Part shown: piece after piece, positions 6,046-16,825 of the stretch
How positions within the stretch are numbered: position 1 is the first letter of the stretch
How the letters are laid out: each line of letters begins with the position of its first letter
NCBI GenBank assembly: GCA_040005235.1
Contig: JBDTZG010000002.1
Span: forward strand, 160,001 to 224,000
Reading direction: 5' to 3'
Source of the DNA: Acidobacteriota bacterium
GTDB taxonomy: Bacteria > Acidobacteriota > Thermoanaerobaculia > Multivoradales > UBA5704
DNA length: 64,000 bases
Program-made: the position numbers and the translations under genes
The notes under the pieces: model-generated
Told to the model about the DNA's origin: nothing
The model's input: only the letters and a program-made list of their open reading frames with translations
The model's database searches: none

Positions 6046-7440
6046 CTATTCGCTTGGGGTGATGGCCGAGATCTCAGCCGCGATCCGGCCGGCGTTCCTG
6101 ATGCAATCGGGAACCGAGACGCCGCCCAGGAAGTTGCCGGCCAGCCGCAGGCCAGGCAGCTCGCGCTCGATCTCCTCGGCCAAAGCGACGAACCGGCCGT
6201 GGCCCACTTCGTACTGCGGGATCGCCCGTGGCCAACGCCGAACGATCGCCAACTTGGGCCGACTGTATAATCCGAGCGCTCTCCCCAGGTCTTTCTGAAC
6301 CAGGCCGAGCAGGCGGTCGTCGCTCCAGATCGCGGGGTCGACGATCTCCGGGTCGGTCCGGCCCCCCAGGAACGCGGAGAGGGCGACGTGTCCCGCGGGA
6401 GCGCGGTCGGGGAAGATCGTCGAGGGGAACAGGCAGCCGAGCAGCCGCAGGCTCTCTCGCCGGGGGGCGAGGAAGCCGAAGCCGTCGAGCGGATGAACGA
6501 TCTGCTCGCGGGCCACCCCCAAGGCGACGACCGCGACAGGGGCGTAGGGGATTTCGGTGAATGTCCGGCTCTTGCCCTCGGTCGCTTCCTCCAGCAGCCG
6601 CGCCGCCACGTCGGCGGGGACCGCGAGCACTACCCGTCGGGCGCCAATCGGCCCATCGCTCGTCTCGACCCGGAAGCCCTCCCCGCTACGAACCACCGAC
6701 ATTGCGGAAACGTCCGTCCGCAAGTCGCCGATCTCCTGGGCCAAGCGCCGCGGCAGGGTCTCCAAACCGTCCCGGAAGGAGAACATCGCCCCGCCGGGCG
6801 ACGGGCCTTTCCGTTGGGCGAGAGCGCCGCGGATCAGGCTGCCGTGCTCAGTCTCGAGAGCGAAGATCTTCGGCACCGCCCAGCGCACCGCGAGCCGCTC
6901 GGGATCTCCGGCATAGATGCCCGAGACGAACGGCCCCACGGCATAATCGAGCAGCTCGTCCCCCAGCCGGCGGCGGACGAAAGCGGCGACCGTCTCGTCG
7001 GGCGCGGCCGCGATCTCAGCTGCCGAACGGCGGCGAATCCAGGGCTCGCGGAGCAGTCGGAGCTTCCCGCCGAGCGAAAACAGACGGGTGAGCAGGAGCC
7101 CCGGCGGACCGCCCGGGAGCGGTTCCAGGTGATCGCCCTTCCATAAATAGCGGCGTTTGGCGGCGGGGGAGGCGACGATTTTCTCGCGATTCGCCTCGTC
7201 ATCGAGGCCGGCGTCGCGAAGCAGCTTGGAGACCGCGGGGTGATTATCGAGCACCGTGTTCGGTCCCAGCTCGAAGCGGAAACCGGCCTCGGAATGGGTT
7301 TCGATCGCGCCGCCGACGCGCCCGCTCGCCTCGATCACCTCGACGGAAAGGCCGGCCCGTCTCAGGCGGAACGCCGCGGTCAGGCCGGAGATACCGGCGC
7401 CAATGACCAAGACGTCCAACGCTTCGGCCGATTCGGGCAT
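6046..7440 (-). CDS. hemY: Protoporphyrinogen/coproporphyrinogen oxidase, HemY type
   Basis: FAD motif IGAGISGL, ELGPNT, GIYAGDP, GFGFLAP, RWPRAIPQY, LAGNFLGGVSVPDCI. Confidence 0.9.
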   Translation of the reverse strand: MPESAEALDVLVIGAGISGLTAAFRLRRAGLSVEVIEASGRVGGAIETHSEAGFRFELGPNTVLDNHPAVSKLLRDAGLDDEANREKIVASPAAKRRYLWKGDHLEPLPGGPPGLLLTRLFSLGGKLRLLREPWIRRRSAAEIAAAPDETVAAFVRRRLGDELLDYAVGPFVSGIYAGDPERLAVRWAVPKIFALETEHGSLIRGALAQRKGPSPGGAMFSFRDGLETLPRRLAQEIGDLRTDVSAMSVVRSGEGFRVETSDGPIGARRVVLAVPADVAARLLEEATEGKSRTFTEIPYAPVAVVALGVAREQIVHPLDGFGFLAPRRESLRLLGCLFPSTIFPDRAPAGHVALSAFLGGRTDPEIVDPAIWSDDRLLGLVQKDLGRALGLYSRPKLAIVRRWPRAIPQYEVGHGRFVALAEEIERELPGLRLAGNFLGGVSVPDCIRNAGRIAAEISAITPSE

Positions 7441-7452
7441 CGCGGAGGCCGG

Positions 7453-10400
7453 TCAGGTCCCGGTTGGCGGTCCGTCGATCACCTGGCGGACGGCGCGAGC
7501 GAGAACTCCGGCGGAGAAAGGTTTCTGCAGGCAGAGCGGCCCCTCTCTTCGGGCCGACACGGTGCCGCTACGGTAGCCCGACATGTAGAGGACCCGCAAC
7601 TCCGGTCGGTCCGCCAAAAGGAGGGCCGCGATCTCGATTCCCTTAAGGCCGGGCATGGTCAGATCGGTCAGCAGCAGGTCGATCGGCTCGGTCGAGCCGG
7701 CCGCGATCTCGATGGCCTCCGCCCCCGAGGCCGCGACGAGCACGCGATAGCCGCGGCCTTCGAGGATTCGGCGCAGGACATCGCGGACCTTGTCTTCGTC
7801 TTCGACCAGCAGGATCGTCTCGTCGCCGGGTTCCAAGGGCTCTTCCGGAGCCACCGCCGGCTCGATCTCGGGATCGAGATGGGCGGGAAGATAGAGGCTG
7901 AACCGGGCGCCTTCTCCCGGGGCGCTGTCGACGAAAATGAAGCCGCCGCTCTGCTGGACGAAACCATAGCTGGTCGCCAGCCCCAAGCCGGTCCCCTCTC
8001 CGACCTCGCGCGTGCTGAAGAACGGCTCGAAGATTCTTCCTTGCGTTTCGGCATCCATGCCGATTCCGGTATCGGAAATGGCGACCAGCGCCCAGACGCC
8101 CGGCGGAACGTCGTGCTCGGCAGGCGCTTCGTGGGCGACGGTCACCGGTTCGGTCCGCAGGGTGAGCACGCCGCCTTCGGGCATGGCGTGGCGGGCGTTG
8201 ACCGCGAGGTTCACCAGAACGTGTTCCAAGCGGTTCGGATCGAGACGGACCGCGGGCAGATCGGGGTGGAGAGAGGTGCGGACCTCCACGTCGTTGCCCA
8301 GCAGCCGATGGACCATGCGCAGGAGGCCGGTGATCGATTCGTTCAGATCGACCACCCGCTGTTCCACCGCTTGGCGCCGGGCAAATGCCAAAAGCTGGCG
8401 GGTGAGCGCGGCGGCCTTTTCGCTCGCCTCGCGCAGCCCGACCAAGTTTTGTTGCAGGAAGTCGTCGTCCCGGTAGATCTCCGTCAGGATGTCGGTGTAG
8501 CCAAAGATCGCGAGCAGGCAGTTGTTGAAGTCGTGGGCGACGCCGGCCGAAAGCCGGCCGATCGCCTCCATCTTCTCCGCGAGCAGGAGCTGGCGTTGAA
8601 GGCGGTCCTTCTCCTCCTCGTCGCGCTTGCGCCGGTCGATGTCGCGAATCGCGACCACGGTAGCGGCTTCCCCCTGGAAAAGGATCCGTTTGCCCGCGAT
8701 TTCGAGATTCACCGCCGAGCCGTCCCGGCGGCGGCCGATCGTTTCGCGCGGCTCGCTCGACAGCGGAGTCTCGGTCAAATCGCCGAGCTCGATCAGCTCG
8801 GCGAGTGCCTGTCCCTGCAGCTCGAGGGCGGGAACGCCGAAGATCGCGGTCATCGCGCCGTTGACCGCCAAGACGGTTCCATCGCGAACGATCGCGATCC
8901 CTTCGAGGGTCGCTTCGAACAGCGCGCGGAAGCGCTGCTCGCTCTGCCGGATTTCCTGTTCGATCGCGCGCCGCTGCTCGATTTCGAGTTGAGCCCGCTC
9001 GTACAGGCGAATGTTTTCGAGCATCGGCGCGACCTGATTCGCGACCGTCGACAAAAGCTGAATGTCGCTTGCGGGATAGAAGTCGTCAGGATCGCGCCGA
9101 CCCATCAGCCAGACGCCGAGGGTCTGCTCCTTGACTTCGAGCGGAAGAGCCAACCGTACCCAGGAGCGGGTTCGCCCGTCCTGTGCCGACGAGGGCCGTA
9201 GATAACGTCGTCCGCGGGCGAGCCAGGCGCCGATCTCCAGCCGGTCGGGTGTCGGTTCGCCGCTTGGGAGGCCCTGAGAATAGAGCGCTTCCACCCCTTC
9301 TTCGGCGAACAGGTAGAGCGCCGATTGGCGAACCAACAAGGTGGGCAAGATCTCCTCGACCAGCGTCGTTCCGAGCACCGATCGATCGAACGCCCGCGGA
9401 ATCTTCTCGGCGACCAGGCCGACCACCTCTTCGTGATTATGCCGAATGCCGAAGACGTGGCGGTCGACCAGAGTCTGGAAACGGTCGTGCAGACTGGGAG
9501 CGAAAACCACTAAGACGAGTGCGGTCGCAAGAAGGGTGGCAAGGGTGCGCGGTTGGCCGGCGAGGCTGCGCGAACCGGCCATCAGCAGGAGACTGACGGC
9601 CAGGGTGAGGTACAGAGCCCAAAAGCTGTAGGCGCCGATCAGCCGATTGGCGCGGAACTCCATCGCTCCCAGGGTATGTTTGTAAATCGCATAGATATAG
9701 CTCGCCGACGGAATCGGTGCCGCGACCAAAGAGATCGTGATCGCCCAGGGTAGCGAGTGGCTGATGTCGGAGGCGGACATGCCCAGCCGGCTGCTGAAGA
9801 GGGGCAGCAGGGCGAAGAACCCGGCGATCGGCGCAAAACCCAGAGTCACGCCGAACAACATGATGCGGGTTGCCTGGCGCACCGCGGGCGGCCCGGGGAG
9901 AAAAAGGCGGGCGACGAGAAAAGCGAACGAAAGGACCAGGCCGCCGAGAAAGGAGAGCCGGAAGAAAACCGGAAAATCCTCGAGAAGGTGGGCGGTGTCG
10001 AGTCCGGCCAAGACCAGGGAAATGGCGTACAGCGGAGCGAGCACCCAGCCTCCCCGTCGACCGAACAGCGGGCTGGGCAGGAGGGTATGAAGGTGGGCGG
10101 CCAGAGGCAGGAAGAGCCAAACCACGAAATGGAACACGACCGAGGAGCCTGCGGTGTGGCGTGCCGAGGCGATTCCCGAGGAGAGCAAGATCGCGGTCAC
10201 ATAGGCGAACAAGACGAGCGCCAGCCATCGCTCGTCTCGAGGACGCAGAAAAAGGACGACAGCGGTACCGAAGAGCCAGAAAATCTGCGGCAGAAGGGAG
10301 AGAAGCGCGGACTCCTCGAGGAGCGCCTGGGGGCCGTCCTTCCAGTGGGAAGGGATCTTGAACGTCTCGCCGTGACGTAAGACCGTGAGCGTCGTGGCGC

Positions 10401-10683
10401 CATCGACCGAATACCCCTTGAAGATGTCGAGGCTGCGGTCCGCGAGAAAGCGCTCGCGGTCGATGCCGCCGATGGCAAGGATCTGATCCTCGGCGCGAAG
10501 ACAAACTTGAGTCTTCGGGCAGCTCGGTGCCTGGGTTACCGTCCAGTCGGCTCTCATCTCGAAGCCGAAGCCTGGGTAGTAGGCGATGTAGGAGTAATAG
10601 AGGGTCGGAGCGAGAACCAGCAGCGATATGCTGATCCACACCAGGTCGACGATTCGGCGGGTTTGCGCCGTTCTTGGGGTCAC
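7453..10683 (-). CDS. Membrane hybrid sensor histidine kinase (TM-PDZ-multiTM-GAF-PAS-HisKA-HATPase-REC)
   Basis: 1076 aa; PDZ-like segment (YPGFGF...LRAEDQILAIGG...TLTVLRHGE) after the first TM; many further hydrophobic helices; H-box AGVAHDFNN; NLAVNA, DTGIGM, GTGLGL; REC domain ILLVEDE...DLTMPG...KPF; GTG start overlaps the upstream TGA. Confidence 0.9.
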   Translation of the reverse strand: MTPRTAQTRRIVDLVWISISLLVLAPTLYYSYIAYYPGFGFEMRADWTVTQAPSCPKTQVCLRAEDQILAIGGIDRERFLADRSLDIFKGYSVDGATTLTVLRHGETFKIPSHWKDGPQALLEESALLSLLPQIFWLFGTAVVLFLRPRDERWLALVLFAYVTAILLSSGIASARHTAGSSVVFHFVVWLFLPLAAHLHTLLPSPLFGRRGGWVLAPLYAISLVLAGLDTAHLLEDFPVFFRLSFLGGLVLSFAFLVARLFLPGPPAVRQATRIMLFGVTLGFAPIAGFFALLPLFSSRLGMSASDISHSLPWAITISLVAAPIPSASYIYAIYKHTLGAMEFRANRLIGAYSFWALYLTLAVSLLLMAGSRSLAGQPRTLATLLATALVLVVFAPSLHDRFQTLVDRHVFGIRHNHEEVVGLVAEKIPRAFDRSVLGTTLVEEILPTLLVRQSALYLFAEEGVEALYSQGLPSGEPTPDRLEIGAWLARGRRYLRPSSAQDGRTRSWVRLALPLEVKEQTLGVWLMGRRDPDDFYPASDIQLLSTVANQVAPMLENIRLYERAQLEIEQRRAIEQEIRQSEQRFRALFEATLEGIAIVRDGTVLAVNGAMTAIFGVPALELQGQALAELIELGDLTETPLSSEPRETIGRRRDGSAVNLEIAGKRILFQGEAATVVAIRDIDRRKRDEEEKDRLQRQLLLAEKMEAIGRLSAGVAHDFNNCLLAIFGYTDILTEIYRDDDFLQQNLVGLREASEKAAALTRQLLAFARRQAVEQRVVDLNESITGLLRMVHRLLGNDVEVRTSLHPDLPAVRLDPNRLEHVLVNLAVNARHAMPEGGVLTLRTEPVTVAHEAPAEHDVPPGVWALVAISDTGIGMDAETQGRIFEPFFSTREVGEGTGLGLATSYGFVQQSGGFIFVDSAPGEGARFSLYLPAHLDPEIEPAVAPEEPLEPGDETILLVEDEDKVRDVLRRILEGRGYRVLVAASGAEAIEIAAGSTEPIDLLLTDLTMPGLKGIEIAALLLADRPELRVLYMSGYRSGTVSARREGPLCLQKPFSAGVLARAVRQVIDGPPTGT

Positions 10684-11669
10684 CTCGGCTCCGGGATTCC
10701 CTGGAGCCTGTCGCCGCTACCGAGCGAAAGCAGGTGCTCGAGCGGGCGCACCAGCCGGTTGACCATCCGATCGAGAGGCGCGTGCGAGATCACTTCCAGG
10801 GCTTGTACCTGTCGACGTGACTCGGTGGAAAAATGGTCCATCTGGAGCGCACAGTAGCTCACGGCTCCCGATTTGAAAAGAAGTTTTTGCGCGGAGGCTA
10901 GCGATTCCGGGTCTCCCACCCCTTGGGCGAGGCGGGCGAACTCGTTCCGCTCAGGGTACGTGGCGGTCATGGCGTAGAGCAGGGCCAGGTTGTTGCGTGG
11001 CCGGCTCCAGTCGGCGCTCGCCGGCGTGTTGAGCGAATCGGCGAGATCGTCGCTCACTTGAATGAAACGGCCGAGACTTCGTCCGAGGCGCTCGAATCCG
11101 GCGATCGTGGAGCTCGAGGCTCCGGCCAGCAGACCGCCCAGAGCGAAGGCGGCGGCGAACAGCGGCGGGGACTTTGCCTCGACTCTCCGCCAGTAATCTT
11201 CCTCCGTTGTCGATTCGACGGTGTCCAATTCTTGGCCATGAGCCGTCGCGAGAAACGCGCAGGAAAGCTGAGCTTGAAGCGCCGAGTATCGAGGCGATTC
11301 GATCGCGGTATTCTCGATCAGTCGATGGGCCGCGGCTTGGAAAGCCGAGGCCAGATTCGCGGCCCGGCCGACTCCTAGAAAGTGAAAGTCGCCCTTCGGG
11401 TCGTTGTCGAGCAGGTCGTCGATCAGATGGATGGCGGTCAAGGCGCAGAGAATCGCCGCCGCGCCAGGCAACGCCTGCTCTTCCGTACCGCCCGAAGCCA
11501 GGCATGCGGCAACGGGGTATTCCCATACCGAGATTTCGTCGCAATGTTTGGCCCGACTGATGAGATCGAGCATCTCGGGCCAGCGGTTGACCTCGGGCAG
11601 GTGAGCGACCAGCGCTTTCAAACGTTCAAAACGCTGGTTTATAGAGCGACCGCGAACTTCGACTTGCAT
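10680..11669 (-). CDS. Class I isoprenoid synthase-fold (polyprenyl synthetase-like) protein; candidate ComQ-like peptide prenyltransferase
   Basis: Asp-rich motifs HLIDDLLD and QVSDDLAD, GQELD, KS motif; no GKRxR motif and no RRG after the first Asp motif. Confidence 0.75.
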   Translation of the reverse strand: MQVEVRGRSINQRFERLKALVAHLPEVNRWPEMLDLISRAKHCDEISVWEYPVAACLASGGTEEQALPGAAAILCALTAIHLIDDLLDNDPKGDFHFLGVGRAANLASAFQAAAHRLIENTAIESPRYSALQAQLSCAFLATAHGQELDTVESTTEEDYWRRVEAKSPPLFAAAFALGGLLAGASSSTIAGFERLGRSLGRFIQVSDDLADSLNTPASADWSRPRNNLALLYAMTATYPERNEFARLAQGVGDPESLASAQKLLFKSGAVSYCALQMDHFSTESRRQVQALEVISHAPLDRMVNRLVRPLEHLLSLGSGDRLQGIPEPR

Positions 11670-11756
11670 CTAGGTAAATTTCTCGAACCTCTAAAAACCT
11701 TGCGCGAATCGGGTAGGCGAAACGACGGGTTCGTCGCTTCGCCTACTCGGGATATT

Positions 11757-11942
11757 TTAGGAAAGCTCGGAAGCAGCCTGGGCCGACGAAGTCCATTCGG
11801 GCCAGCCGTCCGGATCGGGTTTACCTGCCGCTCCGAACACTTGCGATGGATCTTCAACCTTAGAGATGGCGCGAAGCCTGATCAAAAGGGGGTCGGCATC
11901 GCACACGCCATGCAGAGATCGGTTAAAACTTTCGATGGACAT
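11757..11942 (-). CDS. Small Trp-containing peptide (candidate ComX-like precursor), 61 aa
   Basis: Strong RBS GGAGGGAG 6 nt before the ATG at 11942; MSIESFNRSLHGVCDADPLLIRLRAISKVEDPSQVFGAAGKPDPDGWPEWTSSAQAASELS; directly upstream of and co-oriented with the prenyltransferase. Confidence 0.6.
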   Translation of the reverse strand: MSIESFNRSLHGVCDADPLLIRLRAISKVEDPSQVFGAAGKPDPDGWPEWTSSAQAASELS

Positions 11943-12129
11943 CAATTACTCCCTCCGACTACAAGTTAGTTGTAAAATCTTGATCGCGGCCCACGCAGAT
12001 CCCCCGAATCGAGCGAGTCTCGATGTAAGAAAGATCTTTGTGAGACGGAAAAACCGCGACCAAGCGACCGTATACCGGTGCTGGAGTGCGACGATCTCCC
12101 TAAAGAGGGACACGTTTGTTCAAAAAAAT

Positions 12130-13326
12130 TCAGGAGGCGGGTGGAATGTGCAAACTCTCGTCGGCCGCGAGGTCTCGGCCCGTGCGGGGGTATGAAAAAA
12201 AGTGACCTTGGCCGAAATCGATTCCCAGTCTGCGAATCTCTTCGGCTTCTGCCGCGGTCTCTACCGCTTCCATCACCGTTTTGGCGCCGGTTCGCGCGGC
12301 CATCTCGGCGGTCGAACGGACCAAGGCTTGTTTAAATGGATCTTGTTCGACTCCGCGACAGAAGGCGGACGAAATCTTAAGGAACTCCGGGCGGAGATCT
12401 AGAAACAAATTTAAATTTGATGATCCTTCGCCAAAATCATCCAAAGCGATTCTTAATCCAAGATCGCGCAACTTCGCGAGGGTCGCGGCGAAGGCGCGCG
12501 GATTCAAGATCGTGTGTTGCTCGGTGAGCTCCAGAATCACCCGCTGGTGATCGACCTCCGCCGTGCGCAGCGCTTCGACCAGCCGGGGGGTGAACTCGGG
12601 GTGGGTGAGAGATCGCGGCTGGACGTTCAAAAATGCGGTCAAGCGTCCCGGCAGGTGGCGAAATTCGGCGAGCGCGGCACGGATACAAAGTAAATCGACC
12701 TCGAACGCCAACTCTTTCTTTGCCGCATAAGCGAACAATAGAGCCGGCATGCCGAGCAGAGAACCCGCCGGGCCGCGGGCGAGACCTTCGACGCCGAAAA
12801 CCTCGAACGGCGGGCCGCCGTCGAACAGCGGAACCACGGGCTGAAGCAGAGCGTGCAGCGGACCCGCCGACAGGAAGCTTTCGAGCAGCGGAACTTTCTC
12901 GACCGTCGGCGCCTGCGGCGGACTCTTCGGCGTTTCCGGATCAGCTGAAGCCGCCGCTTGCCGCGCCTGCTCGGCGAGCAGCAGGCGGCGCAGCTCGCCC
13001 AAACCGCCCGGTTTATCGAGGACGGCCGCGACCCCCATCAGATGGCAGATCGAACGGACGCTCTCGTCCAAGAAACCCGAGAGGACGTAAAGCGCGGTGT
13101 CCGGGAAGTGCGTGGCGACGAAGCGGATCAGCCGTACCCCTTCGAGCCCGCCGAGCGGCGACACCGAAAGATCGGTAACCACGGCGTCGAAGGGATACTG
13201 GCTGAGCAACGCCTCCGCCGCCTCGATTTCCAGGCAGGTGGTCAGGGCAACGTCGGGCGCTCGTAACGCGAGCGCGAGCATGTCGACCACCATCGACTCG
13301 TCATCGAGCACCAAGACTCTAAACAT
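12130..13326 (-). CDS. Response regulator receiver + EAL c-di-GMP phosphodiesterase
   Basis: Likely start MFRVLVLDDE; REC with VVTDL and DKP; EAL variant VEGLAR, FLNV, LELTE, ALDDFGEG, LKIS, EAVET, GQG. Confidence 0.85.
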   Translation of the reverse strand: MFRVLVLDDESMVVDMLALALRAPDVALTTCLEIEAAEALLSQYPFDAVVTDLSVSPLGGLEGVRLIRFVATHFPDTALYVLSGFLDESVRSICHLMGVAAVLDKPGGLGELRRLLLAEQARQAAASADPETPKSPPQAPTVEKVPLLESFLSAGPLHALLQPVVPLFDGGPPFEVFGVEGLARGPAGSLLGMPALLFAYAAKKELAFEVDLLCIRAALAEFRHLPGRLTAFLNVQPRSLTHPEFTPRLVEALRTAEVDHQRVILELTEQHTILNPRAFAATLAKLRDLGLRIALDDFGEGSSNLNLFLDLRPEFLKISSAFCRGVEQDPFKQALVRSTAEMAARTGAKTVMEAVETAAEAEEIRRLGIDFGQGHFFSYPRTGRDLAADESLHIPPAS

Positions 13327-13582
13327 TGGGTGAGCAGTATAAGCGTCGACAGCTTGGGAGCCAAGAAACGAGGACGGGGAACCGCCTCGTTGTCCTCTCA
13401 CGGTGGCATCCGTGGGTCCGAAGCGCCGGGCCAGATTATCGCGATCGCGCCCGACGATCGCGAGTGAAGCTTGATTCTAAGGACCTTACCGCCCTCGCGC
13501 GTCTTCTGGCACCTGAGTTGCTCTGATGAGGAATCGAACATCGATCGCCCCCCTATTTCGGGGCGCTGGAGGATTTCGCACC

Positions 13583-14287
13583 ATGTCGAAGCACATCACC
13601 CTCGCCCTCGCCCTGCTCGGCTCCGCGCTGGTCGCGGCCAACGCCCAAGCTCAAGTCCCGAGCGGGCCGATCGAACAATCCGTGCGCCTTCGTCTCGGCA
13701 GTTTCCGGCCCGAAGGAAACTCGCAGTACTGGCACGACAAGGCGGTTCAATTCAACGGCAAAGCCTCCGATCTGGAGGATGCGGTCGGCGGCATCGATTA
13801 CCAGCTGGCGCTCAACCCCCATTTCGCGCTGCTGTTTTCGGGCTCCTCGTACCAGGGGAAGACCGACCCGTCCTATCGGAACTTTGTCGATTCACGGGGC
13901 GGCGAGGTCTCGCACACCGCGACGCTCGACATCGCCTCGCTCACCGCCGGCCTGGTGTTTCATCTGGCCGGGCCGAACGCTCCGATCCGTCCGTACCTGG
14001 GCGGCGGAGGGGGCGTCTACGCCTACCGATTGGAAGAGGACGGACGGTTCATAGACTTTACGCCGCCGCCTCCGACCGTCTTCCGCGCCGATTCGGTCGC
14101 CGAGGGCAATTCCTTCGGCTATTACTGGCTGGCCGGTTTTGAAGTGCCGGTCGGTCGCAGCTGGGGCTTTTTCGCCGAGGGGCGCTGGCACCAAGTCGAC
14201 GACGAGCTGGGCGACGACTTCGCCGGCTTCGGCAAGATCGACTTGTCCGGCCGTGACGTCTCGGCGGGCATCTCCTACCGGTTCTGA
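13583..14287 (+). CDS. Outer-membrane beta-barrel protein (OmpA/OmpW-like)
   Basis: RBS GGAGG before ATG 13583; signal peptide ending AQA; RPYLGGGGG strand; C-terminal AGISYRF. Confidence 0.75.
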   Translation: MSKHITLALALLGSALVAANAQAQVPSGPIEQSVRLRLGSFRPEGNSQYWHDKAVQFNGKASDLEDAVGGIDYQLALNPHFALLFSGSSYQGKTDPSYRNFVDSRGGEVSHTATLDIASLTAGLVFHLAGPNAPIRPYLGGGGGVYAYRLEEDGRFIDFTPPPPTVFRADSVAEGNSFGYYWLAGFEVPVGRSWGFFAEGRWHQVDDELGDDFAGFGKIDLSGRDVSAGISYRF

Positions 14288-14296
14288 TCGTTCCCA

Positions 14297-14330
14297 AGGT
14301 CCGCCCGCGTGGCCCCGCGCGGGCGGACCT
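14297..14330 (+). terminator. Stem-loop after the OMP gene (possible terminator)
   Basis: 13-bp perfect inverted repeat aggtccgcccgcg/cgcgggcggacct; weak U-tail. Confidence 0.45.
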
Positions 14331-14350
14331 GTTACGCTTCCCGCCGTTCG

Positions 14351-16825
14351 ATGCCCTCCACTCTTCGCACCCCCACGCCGGAAGCCGGTACGCCCAGTCG
14401 TTGGCGTAAGAAGCGCCTGCTATGGATCGGATTGGGGTTGTTGGTGGTCGTGCTGCTCGCGTTCCTGCCGTTCTGGCAGATCGTCGGCCGGTTCGGGGAC
14501 ATGATTTTCCGCCAGCCCTCGCGGCTCTACGCGCGGATCGATCGGGTGCAAAAAGGCGGTCTGTGCAGCATGGATCGGGTGGTCGCCGAGTTGCGCGCCT
14601 CGGGCTACCGTTCGGTCGGCGGAGAGGGCCCGCTCCTCTCGGGGCGCTATCGCCGAGCGGGGGATCGGCTCGAAGCTCACCTGCGCTATTTCCCGACCCC
14701 CGAAGGCGAGCGCGGCGGAGCGCGGTTCGATCTGCGCACCGCCCAGTCGCGCGTGGTCTCGATCACCCGCGACGGCCGGCCGGTCGACGAGATGATCCTC
14801 GAACCGCCGTTGGTCGCGTCGTACTACGGACCGAAGCTCGAAGAGCGCCGGCCGCTCCGCCTGGAGCAGGTGCCCCAGGATCTGGTGAACGCGGTGCTCG
14901 CGGCGGAGGACGACAGTTTCTTCGAGCACTCGGGGATCTCGGTGCGCGGCGTCGCCCGGGCGGTTTTGGTCAACCTTCGCGGTCACGGCATCCGCCAAGG
15001 CGGCAGCACGCTTACTCAGCAGCTGGTCAAGAACATCTTTCTCACCCAGAAGCGTTCGCTGGGGAGAAAGGCGCAAGAGGCGATCCTCGCGGTGCTGATG
15101 GAGGTGCGGTACGACAAGAAGGAGATCCTGGAGTCGTACCTGAACGAGATCTACCTCGGATCGAGCGGCGGCGTCTCGGTGCTCGGCGTAGGAGCCGCGG
15201 CGCGCGCTTTTTTCGGCAAGGACGCGCGGGATCTCGATCTCGCCGAGGCGGCGACTCTCGCCGGGATGATTCAGTCTCCCGCCCCCTATTCGCCGGTCGC
15301 CCATCCGGAGCGGTGCAAACAGCGCCGCGACTGGGTTTTGGCTCGGCTGGAAGAGCTGGGCCTCGCCGAGCCGGACCGCGTGGCGCGGGCCCTGGCGACG
15401 CCGGTCCTCGCCGAGCCGGAGGCCCCGACCCGCCGCCGCGCGCCCTACTTCAGCGACGCGATGACCCACGAGGTGGAACGCCGTTTCCGCATCGCCGATC
15501 TTGCCGATGCCGGCTTTGCCCTCTATTCGAGCCTCGATCTCACCGATCAGCGCGCGGCGCAGGCGGCGGTCGAGAGCGGCCTCGCCGACCTTGAAAAGAA
15601 GGGACCGCAGGGCGACAGCAAGGGTCCGCTGGAGTCCGCCCTGGTCTCGGTCGATCCGGCGACCGGCGGCCTGCTCGCCTACGTCGGGGGACGAAGCTAT
15701 ACCCGCAGCCAGTTCGATCGGGCGAGCCAGGCGAAGCGCCAGCCCGGCAGCGCGTTCAAGCCAATCGTCTACGCCCAACTGTTCGAATCGGGAAAGGGAA
15801 CGCCGGCGTCGTTCGTCGAGGATTCGCCGCTCACGATCGACATGGCCGGCAAGCCCTGGAGTCCGAAAAACGACGACGGTAGCTTTCACGGCTGGGTCAC
15901 CGTCCGCCGGGCGCTGGAGCACAGCTACAACCCGGCGACGACGCGCATCGCCCTCCAGGTCGGCATGGACCATGTGGTGACGCTTGCCCACAAGATGGGG
16001 GTCGAAGCGGAGATGGACCCGTTCCCCGCGGTGGCGCTCGGCGCCACGTCCGTTTCGCCGATCGAGCTGTTGCGGGTCTATGCGACGCTCGCCGCGGGCG
16101 GCGTCCGTCCGGAGGTCCATGGCATCGACGCGGTGTTCGACCGCTTCGGCAAGCCGGTCGAGGGCGAGGTCCTGCCGGCGCCCGAGCGGGTCCTTTCGCC
16201 GCAGTCGGCGTATCTGGTGACCACTCTGCTTCAAGGCGTGATCGATCGAGGAACCGGCTTTGGGATTCGGGCCCAGGGAATCGAAGGGGCGCTCGCCGGG
16301 AAAACCGGCACCACGAACGACCGGCGCGACGCCTGGTTCGGCGGCTATTCGGTCAACCGCGCGACGGTCGTCTGGGTCGGGTTCGACGACAACTCTCCCA
16401 CCCGCCTGTCGGGCGCCCGCGGCGCCCTGCCGATTTGGGCGCGATTCACCTCGCAGGTCCGCTCTCCGGCGGGATTCCCGCCGTTCAAGCAGCCTCCCGG
16501 CCTGCGGACGGCGATGATCGATCCGACCACCGGCGCGCTCGCCACCGAGTATTGTCCGGCGGTGATCACCGAGGTCTTCCCCGAAGGGAAGGTCCCTTCC
16601 CAGCTGTGCGATCGCCACACCGGATTTGACTCCACGAGCGGCTACGACGAGGACGGCCAGCCGCTCGACGGCGAGGATGCGGGAGGAGTCCAGCCGCAGC
16701 GGCATCCCTTCCGCCGCTGGTTGAACCAGATCTTTGGCAACCGCGATCCCAACGCGCCGCCGCCGCGAAATTCAGGCGACGGTTCGTCGCCTCCCCCGGT
16801 GCCTCCTCCGGATCCCCATCGCTAG
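14351..16825 (+). CDS. mrcB: Bifunctional penicillin-binding protein 1B (transglycosylase/transpeptidase)
   Basis: N-terminal TM and UB2H-like region; GT motifs AEDDSFFEH, QGGSTLTQQLVKN, YLNEIYLG; TP motifs GSAFK, SYN, GKTGT. Confidence 0.88.
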   Translation: MPSTLRTPTPEAGTPSRWRKKRLLWIGLGLLVVVLLAFLPFWQIVGRFGDMIFRQPSRLYARIDRVQKGGLCSMDRVVAELRASGYRSVGGEGPLLSGRYRRAGDRLEAHLRYFPTPEGERGGARFDLRTAQSRVVSITRDGRPVDEMILEPPLVASYYGPKLEERRPLRLEQVPQDLVNAVLAAEDDSFFEHSGISVRGVARAVLVNLRGHGIRQGGSTLTQQLVKNIFLTQKRSLGRKAQEAILAVLMEVRYDKKEILESYLNEIYLGSSGGVSVLGVGAAARAFFGKDARDLDLAEAATLAGMIQSPAPYSPVAHPERCKQRRDWVLARLEELGLAEPDRVARALATPVLAEPEAPTRRRAPYFSDAMTHEVERRFRIADLADAGFALYSSLDLTDQRAAQAAVESGLADLEKKGPQGDSKGPLESALVSVDPATGGLLAYVGGRSYTRSQFDRASQAKRQPGSAFKPIVYAQLFESGKGTPASFVEDSPLTIDMAGKPWSPKNDDGSFHGWVTVRRALEHSYNPATTRIALQVGMDHVVTLAHKMGVEAEMDPFPAVALGATSVSPIELLRVYATLAAGGVRPEVHGIDAVFDRFGKPVEGEVLPAPERVLSPQSAYLVTTLLQGVIDRGTGFGIRAQGIEGALAGKTGTTNDRRDAWFGGYSVNRATVVWVGFDDNSPTRLSGARGALPIWARFTSQVRSPAGFPPFKQPPGLRTAMIDPTTGALATEYCPAVITEVFPEGKVPSQLCDRHTGFDSTSGYDEDGQPLDGEDAGGVQPQRHPFRRWLNQIFGNRDPNAPPPRNSGDGSSPPPVPPPDPHR

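Follow-up and report, generated by a model that had tools for sequence, protein, structure and literature searches.

A conserved cassette of precursor peptide, prenyl-synthase-fold enzyme and sensor kinase in Acidobacteriota and other phyla: a putative variant of prenyl-peptide signalling

Could a diderm bacterium outside the Firmicutes carry a peptide signalling system that works in the manner of ComQXP of Bacillus? Peptide pheromones are the textbook signals of Gram-positive bacteria, while diderms are thought to use small molecules such as acyl-homoserine lactones. The question is raised by a locus of a soil Acidobacteriota bacterium (Thermoanaerobaculia, Multivoradales, UBA5704; assembly GCA_040005235.1), found in a stretch of 64,000 nucleotides of contig JBDTZG010000002.1 (positions 160,001 to 224,000), hereafter the window. 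Three consecutive minus-strand genes encode here a small peptide (peptide X), an enzyme with the trans-isoprenyl-diphosphate-synthase (trans-IPPS) fold (enzyme Q) and a hybrid sensor histidine kinase (kinase P). The genome encodes Omp85/BamA and LptD, meaning that the host is diderm. Peptides prenylated on tryptophan (Trp) are known only from a few Bacillota and, through a 2026 preprint (bioRxiv 10.64898/2026.08.29.745113), from one Chloroflexota species of unknown biology. The original prediction, made from the DNA sequence, was that the three genes form a quorum-sensing system analogous to ComQXP, in which enzyme Q would prenylate a Trp of peptide X and kinase P would perceive the product. 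The present analysis supports this interpretation, enzyme Q being devoid of the elongation motifs of the genome's own synthases and the Trp core of peptide X being modelled at the Asp-rich motifs of the enzyme. The cassette is a real and conserved variation on prenyl-peptide signalling, so far undescribed, in phyla outside the Firmicutes, diderm ones among them; in the literature searched, which comprised papers accessible without subscription, no account was found of the cassette in Acidobacteriota or of its W-x-x-W precursor family.

The three genes and their products

Read 5' to 3' on the minus strand, the locus comprises a REC-EAL gene, the peptide X gene (11757..11942), a spacer of 87 nt, the enzyme Q gene (10680..11669, 329 amino acids, aa) and the kinase P gene (7453..10683, 1076 aa), in agreement with the three co-oriented genes initially recognised. 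The open reading frame (ORF) of peptide X would span 11757..11945 and encode 62 aa if started at a TTG; the ATG at 11942 gives 61 aa and is preceded, at a distance of 8 nt, by the strong Shine-Dalgarno sequence GGAGGG (11951..11956) noticed at the outset. The proposed translational coupling of enzyme Q to kinase P was confirmed by reading the junction (...ccg agG TGA ccc...), where the TGA stop of the former and the GTG start of the latter form a GTGA overlap, and relatives of kinase P align from residue 1 of the GTG-started protein.

Peptide X contains exactly two Trp, W47 and W50, both within the DGWPEW motif on which the prediction had rested. It can be divided into a leader of about residues 1-35 (M1, I3, F6 and L23 being conserved), the core W47-P-E-W50 and a tail of 11 residues, and it matched no Pfam or NCBIfam family. 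A jackhmmer search seeded with it, run on the six-frame ORFs of the window and of 80 loci with enzyme Q homologues taken from species-representative genomes, converged in four rounds and retrieved 105 peptide ORFs in 73 of the 81 sources. The expected company of a short Trp-bearing ORF and the enzyme was therefore found. Three of the eight sources missed by this search had their upstream region lost to a contig end, and the other five (L066, L069, L074, L078 and L082) present divergent small ORFs ending in W-x-x-W, recognised by eye only. The family is defined by the leader pattern M-x-I-x-x-F...L-R and by the W-x-x-W core, which lies within the last 40 residues in 96 of the 105 copies (five end in WGWxWDW, and four have one or differently spaced Trp). 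In an alignment of 48 sequences, picked for spread among the 93 peptides with a recognisable start, M1, F6, W47 and W50 are the only invariant columns, with I3 and L23 nearly so. A Shine-Dalgarno core (GGAG, GAGG or AGGA at -17..-4) precedes 74 of these 93 starts, as compared with 256 of 1860 random positions (13.8%). The tail that follows the core has a median of 12 residues over 85 peptides, long tails being typical of Acidobacteriota, while the Chloroflexota, Entotheonella and Bacteroidota peptides have the core at or close to the C-terminus; a terminal Trp occurs in a minority (e.g. L059 and L070).

Database searching with the peptide profile returned 92 homologues, all of them unnamed or annotated as "hypothetical protein" and none with a Pfam domain. 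The Pfam ComX model (PF05952) matched none of the 48 aligned members and nothing in the genome, the B. subtilis control being positive, and none of the 48 gave a meaningful match to NHLP or Nif11-type models or to any other family (the single Nif11 match had an E of 0.095), NCBIfam including an NHLP model.

Two groups of peptides depart from the general pattern. In three Myxococcota loci (L041:5715-5984, from Plesiocystis pacifica SIR-1; L049:5697-5957; L050:5662-5973) precursors of 87-104 aa, with a leader as in the peptide X family, carry three or four G/S-W-x-P/V-W core repeats and resemble multi-core precursors of peptides that are made on the ribosome and modified after translation (RiPPs); no sensor kinase lies within 6 kb of them. 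In five Ardenticatenaceae or Leptofilum-like Chloroflexota loci (L070, L073, L075, L079 and L081) the peptides end in W-G-W-x-W-D-W, thus with Trp at alternate positions and at the C-terminus, and the sensor module is equally lacking; at L070 an OmpR-type response regulator adjoins the enzyme gene on the opposite strand.

The isoprenoid-synthase fold attributed to enzyme Q was borne out by a match to Pfam PF00348 (polyprenyl_synt, 50.9 bits for a cut-off of 27) and by an AlphaFold2 model with a predicted local distance difference test score (pLDDT) of 90.6, whose best Foldseek matches in the PDB are trans-isoprenyl diphosphate synthases (TM about 0.72-0.78). In NCBIfam the protein falls far under every equivalog cut-off, the best being 65 bits against 450. 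Its first Asp-rich motif (FARM) reads D84-D85-L-L-D88 and its second (SARM) D207-D208-L-A-D211; the six Asp named, together with K166 and Q204, are invariant in 26 family members, as are the family-specific residues W30, W49, W160, W221, Y272 and C273. When 14 family members were aligned with three canonical synthases that the genome also encodes, three motifs present in all of the latter were absent from the former, namely G-G-K-R-x-R-P, the R-R-G after the FARM (lost through a six-residue deletion) and the G-K after the SARM; a fourth candidate synthase ORF proved to be a spurious reading frame. The basic residues of such motifs in trans-IPPS enzymes bind diphosphates, chiefly that of isopentenyl diphosphate (IPP). 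As read from the alignment, their loss fits an enzyme that would no longer elongate chains. The Gln before the SARM, stressed for Trp prenyltransferases in the published account of these enzymes (PMC13290415), is present in the enzyme Q family and also in the canonical synthases, and has for this reason no discriminating value.

A direct relation between peptide and enzyme is suggested by structure prediction. The complex model of peptide X with enzyme Q scored 0.78 (0.75, 0.78 and 0.80 in individual runs), while the best of three controls gave 0.23; the mark used for comparison is one that 58 of 80 solved complexes and two of 110 mismatched pairs attain. The runs have at least 57% of contacts in common, with a partner pLDDT of at least 60. 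In the model, the leader (residues 1-7 and 19-30, F6 and L23 among them) touches enzyme Q at 231-238 and 264-275, where the family-invariant Y232, A233, G268, Y272 and C273 are contacted, and the core (residues 42-53, with both Trp) touches 77-81, 92-97, 156 and 203-213, beside FARM and SARM. Modelled in this way, the geometry would look like that expected of a leader-guided modification of the W-x-x-W core. The leader-enzyme complex of PalQ and PalX is reported to be likewise predictable by structure models (PMC10853753).

The third gene product, kinase P, was expected to present an input region made of one transmembrane helix (TM), a PDZ-like segment, many further TMs and a GAF domain. The AlphaFold2 model of residues 1-570 (pLDDT 85) agrees with this, consisting of TM1 (6-33), a beta-rich loop (34-123), about nine membrane helices (124-409) and then the GAF domain. 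A profile of the loop built from 31 relatives and compared with PDB sequences gave only PDZ domains at the top, the best being the site-2-protease PDZ 7xft (E 3.2e-6), with DegQ/DegP PDZs among the further top matches; individually, two of the 31 loops are matched by Pfam PDZ_2. Among the Atlas neighbours of the sensor 10-21% of members carry PDZ_2 or PDZ_6, which is to be taken as a lead only. Neither Pfam (no family) nor NCBIfam (one chance match, E 0.026) recognised residues 1-440, and VIA-align, comparing the 570-residue model with 48,161 chains, returned matches that are all to the GAF domain (414-569) and so do not address the loop. In the membrane bundle W136, W153, H197, H199, P203 and Y219 are invariant across phyla. 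On the window, TM1 corresponds to 10585-10668, the extracytoplasmic PDZ-like domain between TM1 and TM2 (taken as residues 34-124) to 10312..10584, the polytopic bundle (125-409) to 9457..10311 and the cytoplasmic GAF (415-570) to 8974..9441, all on the minus strand. Pfam recognised the GAF domain as well. The output region (7489..8937), predicted as a PAS-HisKA-REC hybrid, was recovered by Pfam as PAS (583-682), HisKA (709-772; PF00512, 28 bits, containing the phospho-acceptor), HATPase_c (815-934) and C-terminal REC (957-1065); NCBIfam added partial CckA-like and PRK13557-like matches, below curated cut-offs.

The PDZ loop that the prediction had attributed to polytopic ComP agrees with AlphaFold modelling of the B. 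amyloliquefaciens protein, described as having ten TM helices and a first extracellular loop (27-111) of PDZ fold that was proposed to bind ComX (PMC9620489). As modelled, the sensor topology of kinase P is the same as that of ComP, the match being at the level of architecture only.

Recurrence of the cassette across phyla

An exhaustive search of representative sequences with enzyme Q gave 163 clusters at E <= 1e-30, well apart from 1907 general matches (E <= 1e-3). The 80 loci belong to Acidobacteriota, Chloroflexota, Myxococcota, Bacteroidota (Kordia and a Cytophagales bin) and Entotheonella, with one contig binned as Asgard. Using the first 570 residues of kinase P in tblastn, 74 loci could be assessed (six were too short), and the TM-PDZ-polytopic-GAF sensor module was present in 65 of them, which agrees with the predicted co-occurrence of enzyme homologues and a PDZ-TM kinase. 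The module lies downstream on the same strand in 56 loci, upstream on the same strand in two and divergently, on the opposite strand, in seven; in Chloroflexota it is kept with a different C-terminal output. Enzyme Q and the sensor module are each encoded once in the window's genome. The genes, their domains and their conservation together are a matter of observation, and because the three parts recur together across phyla the trio is, on comparative grounds, a conserved cassette and not a chance neighbourhood. The Asgard-binned contig (L062, in a record titled Promethearchaeota archaeon) has peptide, enzyme and sensor, and its enzyme branches within the Chloroflexota clade of the tree; it is therefore probably a mis-binned bacterial contig and no archaeal instance.

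The number and order of the genes vary. Many Acidobacteriota loci are ordered X1-Q-X2-P, some loci have a second enzyme or more than one peptide gene (two or three), and the Cytophagales contig has three tandem peptide genes. Two tandem enzyme paralogues occur at L017, L033, L046 and L064, each with its own upstream peptide gene at L017 and L033, which suggests duplication of the peptide-enzyme pair before one sensor.

In a FastTree phylogeny of 83 family sequences and three outgroups (L058 and L084 were dropped because of short high-scoring segment pairs, and support values were not printed), the enzyme family forms one clade apart from the three canonical synthases. The loci without sensor form three clades nested among sensor-bearing ones, a topology suggesting that the sensor was lost in them, although the root rests on the three outgroups only. 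Around three of these loci (L041, L065 and L070) the neighbouring ORFs have nothing in common: TPR, GH30, oxidoreductase, OmpR-type regulator, extracytoplasmic-function sigma factor and NADH dehydrogenase genes were met, or nothing, and no immunity or exporter genes were conserved there.

Five long homologues (P0184, P0195, P0217, P0230 and P0209) were considered as prenyltransferase-cyclase fusions and rejected, PF00348 being their only domain; the first four named are metagenomic singletons. In P0184 (655 aa) the enzyme occupies residues 5-247 and is followed from M319 by the N-terminus of the sensor (31% identity over 303 columns, E 1e-31). A true fusion was rejected here too, because the last 70 or so enzyme residues are replaced, and a frameshift or read-through at the overlapping stop/start is the probable origin. 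P0230 has no similarity to the sensor.

Directly upstream of peptide X, and co-oriented with it, the window encodes a REC-EAL protein of the cyclic di-GMP (c-di-GMP) phosphodiesterase type (12130..13401; Pfam EAL 4.5e-43, Response_reg 9.4e-9), whose true start may be near residue 26. In 34 of the 80 loci, all of them from Acidobacteriota, a gene of this kind has the same upstream, co-oriented position. The protein is a plausible phosphoacceptor and a candidate downstream partner of kinase P. By eye, its EAL domain has most of the catalytic motifs (E-G-L-A-R, E-L-T-E, D-D-F-G, E-A-V-E and G-Q-G), but K-x-D reads K-I-S.

Between the peptide X and enzyme Q genes lies a GC-rich candidate hairpin with 15 perfect base pairs (11713..11746, minus strand), which has a z-score of -4.88 and is equalled in folding by none of 200 shuffles. 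An uninterrupted stem of 11-14 bp occurs at the equivalent place in all of seven other hand-picked loci (z -5.19 to -1.73), which brings the hairpins after the precursor to eight of eight; their sequences are dissimilar, and two of the seven others are weak by z-score. By analogy with many RiPP precursor genes, the hairpin is a candidate attenuator or transcript-stabilising 3' end. A promoter scan found no sigma-70-like site upstream of the peptide X gene, and three terminator-like sites, under the shuffle mean of 7.0.

As to the remaining neighbours, a flavin amine-oxidase-family protein (Amino_oxidase, 223 bits), resembling a protoporphyrinogen or phytoene-type oxidase, is encoded directly 3' of kinase P (6046-7440, minus strand). 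Beyond the REC-EAL gene, inspection by eye indicated on the plus strand a protein of 253 aa (13526-14287), whose N-terminus is signal-peptide-like and whose C-terminal S-Y-R-F recalls outer-membrane beta-barrels, and then a large protein (14309-16825) similar in appearance to class A penicillin-binding proteins.

A proposed mechanism and its rivals

From this arrangement we infer prenylation, processing, export, sensing and a c-di-GMP output in the following sequence. Peptide X would be a ribosomal precursor whose helical leader docks on the C-terminal helices of enzyme Q. The enzyme, having lost the elongation motifs, would bind an allylic prenyl diphosphate (C10-C20) via its Asp-rich motifs and transfer the prenyl group to one or both invariant Trp of W-x-x-W. 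After leader removal and export by other factors, the periplasmic PDZ-like domain and the bundle of about ten helices of kinase P would perceive the lipopeptide at the inner membrane or within it, the signal then passing via GAF-PAS to HisKA/HATPase/REC. In Acidobacteriota it would probably reach the neighbouring REC-EAL protein and so influence c-di-GMP turnover. That peptide X is a substrate of enzyme Q we consider very likely, and its modification is probably Trp prenylation. With moderate confidence we also favour the whole reading, that is a three-gene signalling system based on a Trp-prenylated peptide, and we lean, with slightly less assurance, towards kinase P sensing the modified product.

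Several points weigh against this proposal. Nine of the 74 assessable loci, examined over 6 kb on each side, hold peptide and enzyme without the sensor, so that the role of the peptide is not tied to the kinase everywhere. The spread of the family is patchy, six of 201 sampled genomes of the class matching at E <= 1e-40. Neither an exporter nor a leader peptidase is a conserved part of the cassette, which by itself does not account for the passage of a lipopeptide over the outer membrane. The complex score expresses the confidence of a model and is no measurement, and the hidden Markov model libraries (Pfam and NCBIfam) assign enzyme Q to the generic PF00348 only. Moreover, the likeness to ComQ and ComP is here one of fold and architecture. 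Finally, the enzyme Q family keeps a full D-D-x-x-D SARM whose first Asp is invariant. ComQ and StheQ have N-D in the second motif, and a change of this Asn to Asp is reported to have cost about 90% of the activity in ComQ RO-E-2 and 98% in StheQ (bioRxiv 10.64898/2026.08.29.745113). With a true SARM, the ComQ mechanism is not simply transferable to enzyme Q, which may retain some residual diphosphate chemistry.

A first rival explanation holds that peptide and enzyme make a lipidated RiPP product, for example a membrane-active or antimicrobial one, and that the kinase merely regulates its production or immunity as in lantibiotic autoinduction, without any pheromone system for cell density. 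The nine sensor-less loci would be natural in such a system, as would the multiple peptide or enzyme genes of some loci and the multi-core precursors of L041, L049 and L050, whose three or four W-x-x-W repeats are of a kind often met in natural-product RiPPs. The tight linkage of the sensor (65 of 74 loci), its translational coupling in the window and its single copy in the genome speak against this view, no immunity or exporter genes are conserved, and a product that induced its own synthesis would in any case signal through kinase P. We regard this explanation as unlikely.

Less probable still is that enzyme Q acts on the peptide in another way, by bis-prenylation, by a prenyl bridge or cyclisation of the two Trp or on another residue, giving an unsecreted, cell-associated product that serves as a membrane-anchored co-factor of the kinase. 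Two invariant Trp at i/i+3, where known systems have one acceptor Trp, would suit such a chemistry, and so would the intact SARM, unlike that of ComQ or StheQ, the long tails after the core in Acidobacteriota (the median of 12 residues given above) and a cassette without exporter in a diderm host. On the other side, the core of the Chloroflexota, Entotheonella and Bacteroidota peptides is terminal or nearly so, a position that it also has in ComX, PalX and StheX, and all characterised peptide-acting relatives of the fold (trans-isoprenyl-diphosphate-synthase-like peptide prenyltransferases) prenylate Trp, according to the published account (PMC13290415). That enzyme Q is an ordinary polyprenyl diphosphate synthase of lipid or quinone metabolism and the small ORF chance or unrelated, as the PF00348 match, public names such as "geranylgeranyl pyrophosphate synthase" and the two intact Asp-rich motifs might suggest, is disfavoured and highly improbable, given a small ORF kept with invariant residues and ribosome-binding sites in at least five phylum-level groups, the loss of the canonical basic motifs beside separate canonical synthases in the genome, a complex model that clears its controls and the low NCBIfam score.

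If the favoured reading, a Trp-prenylated peptide sensed by kinase P, holds, it would provide a candidate cell-cell signal for phyla with none known, hard-to-culture soil Acidobacteriota as well as Chloroflexota, Myxococcota and Bacteroidota, together with a new W-x-x-W precursor family and, for the lipidation of peptides, a prenyltransferase branch that is likewise new. It would also supply a natural ligand-receptor pair for the poorly understood class of PDZ-polytopic sensors to which ComP belongs, and a direct link from a peptide signal to c-di-GMP. A stronger proposition appears doubtful, namely that the three genes descend as an ancient module, spread over several phyla, from a common origin with ComQXP, the enzyme and the TM-PDZ-polytopic sensor both being true homologues. 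Were it true, isoprenyl-tryptophan peptide pheromones would be widespread, also in diderms (Acidobacteriota, Myxococcota and Bacteroidota), and no Firmicute speciality, and in Acidobacteriota the hybrid kinase would pass the signal to the adjacent REC-EAL protein and thereby to c-di-GMP turnover. On this proposition, the fixed W-x-x-W core may stand for a doubly prenylated or prenyl-bridged product, which would be new to RiPPs.

Relation to known systems

Canonical trans-IPPS enzymes (GGPPS and OPPS, PF00348) share with enzyme Q the fold, the FARM, G-Q-x-x-D, the Lys of K-T/S and the SARM. Enzyme Q differs from them by the absence of G-G-K-R-x-R-P, of R-R-G after the FARM and of G-K after the SARM, and by its own invariant W30, W49, W160, W221, Y272 and C273, the last two of which contact the modelled leader. 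Ord1 (PDB 9V4J) and the P domain of ChrPC are trans-isoprenyl-diphosphate-synthase-like Trp prenyltransferases, described as having the all-alpha IPPS fold, indole prenylation with C10-C20 donors and the conserved Gln upstream of the second Asp-rich motif; they differ in that the substrate of Ord1 is free Trp and that ChrPC is fused to a terpene cyclase (PMC13290415). In the PDB sequence search Ord1 (9v4g) matched enzyme Q at an E of about 1e-3 only.

Two peptide-modifying systems offer further parallels. PalP-PalX-PalQ of Paenibacillus alvei is, as reported, likewise a three-gene set of kinase, precursor and Trp prenyltransferase of the isoprene synthase superfamily. The leader of PalX is of the NHLP type and its Trp is strictly the last residue, whereas peptide X has a leader of its own and 11 residues past the core, and PalQ falls in its own cluster remote from polyprenyl synthases (PMC10853753), whereas enzyme Q still scores as PF00348. 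StheQ/StheX of Sphaerobacter thermophilus, described in a preprint, was the only ComQ-like system outside the Firmicutes encountered in the literature searched. In it, too, a precursor (about 69 aa) is encoded next to a peptide Trp prenyltransferase of ComQ type, and StheQ has a D-[DE]-x-x-D-x-D FARM, the Lys and, three residues ahead of the second motif, a Gln, all at positions comparable to those of enzyme Q; its binding to the peptide is reported to be strong and leader-dependent (bioRxiv 10.64898/2026.08.29.745113), as the complex model predicts for peptide X and enzyme Q. The differences are that StheX, whose sequence closes with W-W-x, is encoded downstream of StheQ, while peptide X is encoded upstream and has W-x-x-W, and that StheQ has an N215-D216 pseudo-SARM with one Mg site, while enzyme Q has a true SARM. 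In addition, the preprint describes no kinase and gives the biological role as unknown, while the present cassette has a linked sensor kinase (bioRxiv 10.64898/2026.08.29.745113).

In ComP the phospho-acceptor is of the HisKA_3 type. That of kinase P is HisKA, and its GAF-PAS-HisKA-HATPase-REC chain with a REC-EAL neighbour takes the place of the ComP kinase core and ComA, no NarL/LuxR-type regulator being adjacent. The two systems also differ in gene order (X-Q-P here, Q-X-P-A in ComQXPA), in the peptide (none of 48 members matching Pfam ComX, and two invariant Trp in W-x-x-W), in the diderm acidobacterial host and in the second motif of the enzyme, D-D-x-x-D in enzyme Q and the pseudo-SARM N-D-x-x-x in ComQ as described for it (bioRxiv 10.64898/2026.08.29.745113). 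The Trp of ComX bears a geranyl or farnesyl group and forms a tricyclic C3-prenyl Trp. What they have in common is a short leader-bearing precursor whose C-terminal core contains Trp, a neighbouring enzyme of trans-IPPS fold with a DDxxD FARM, and a neighbouring kinase in which TM1 is followed by a loop of PDZ fold (about 85-90 residues) and by some nine further TMs, as modelled for ComP (PMC9620489). "Analogous", as chosen in the original prediction, is thus the right word: because there are differences in the family of the peptide, the second motif, the order of the genes, the core of the kinase and the regulator, the cassette is not a member of ComQXPA, PalPXQ or StheQX, and it is analogous to ComQXP in its working.

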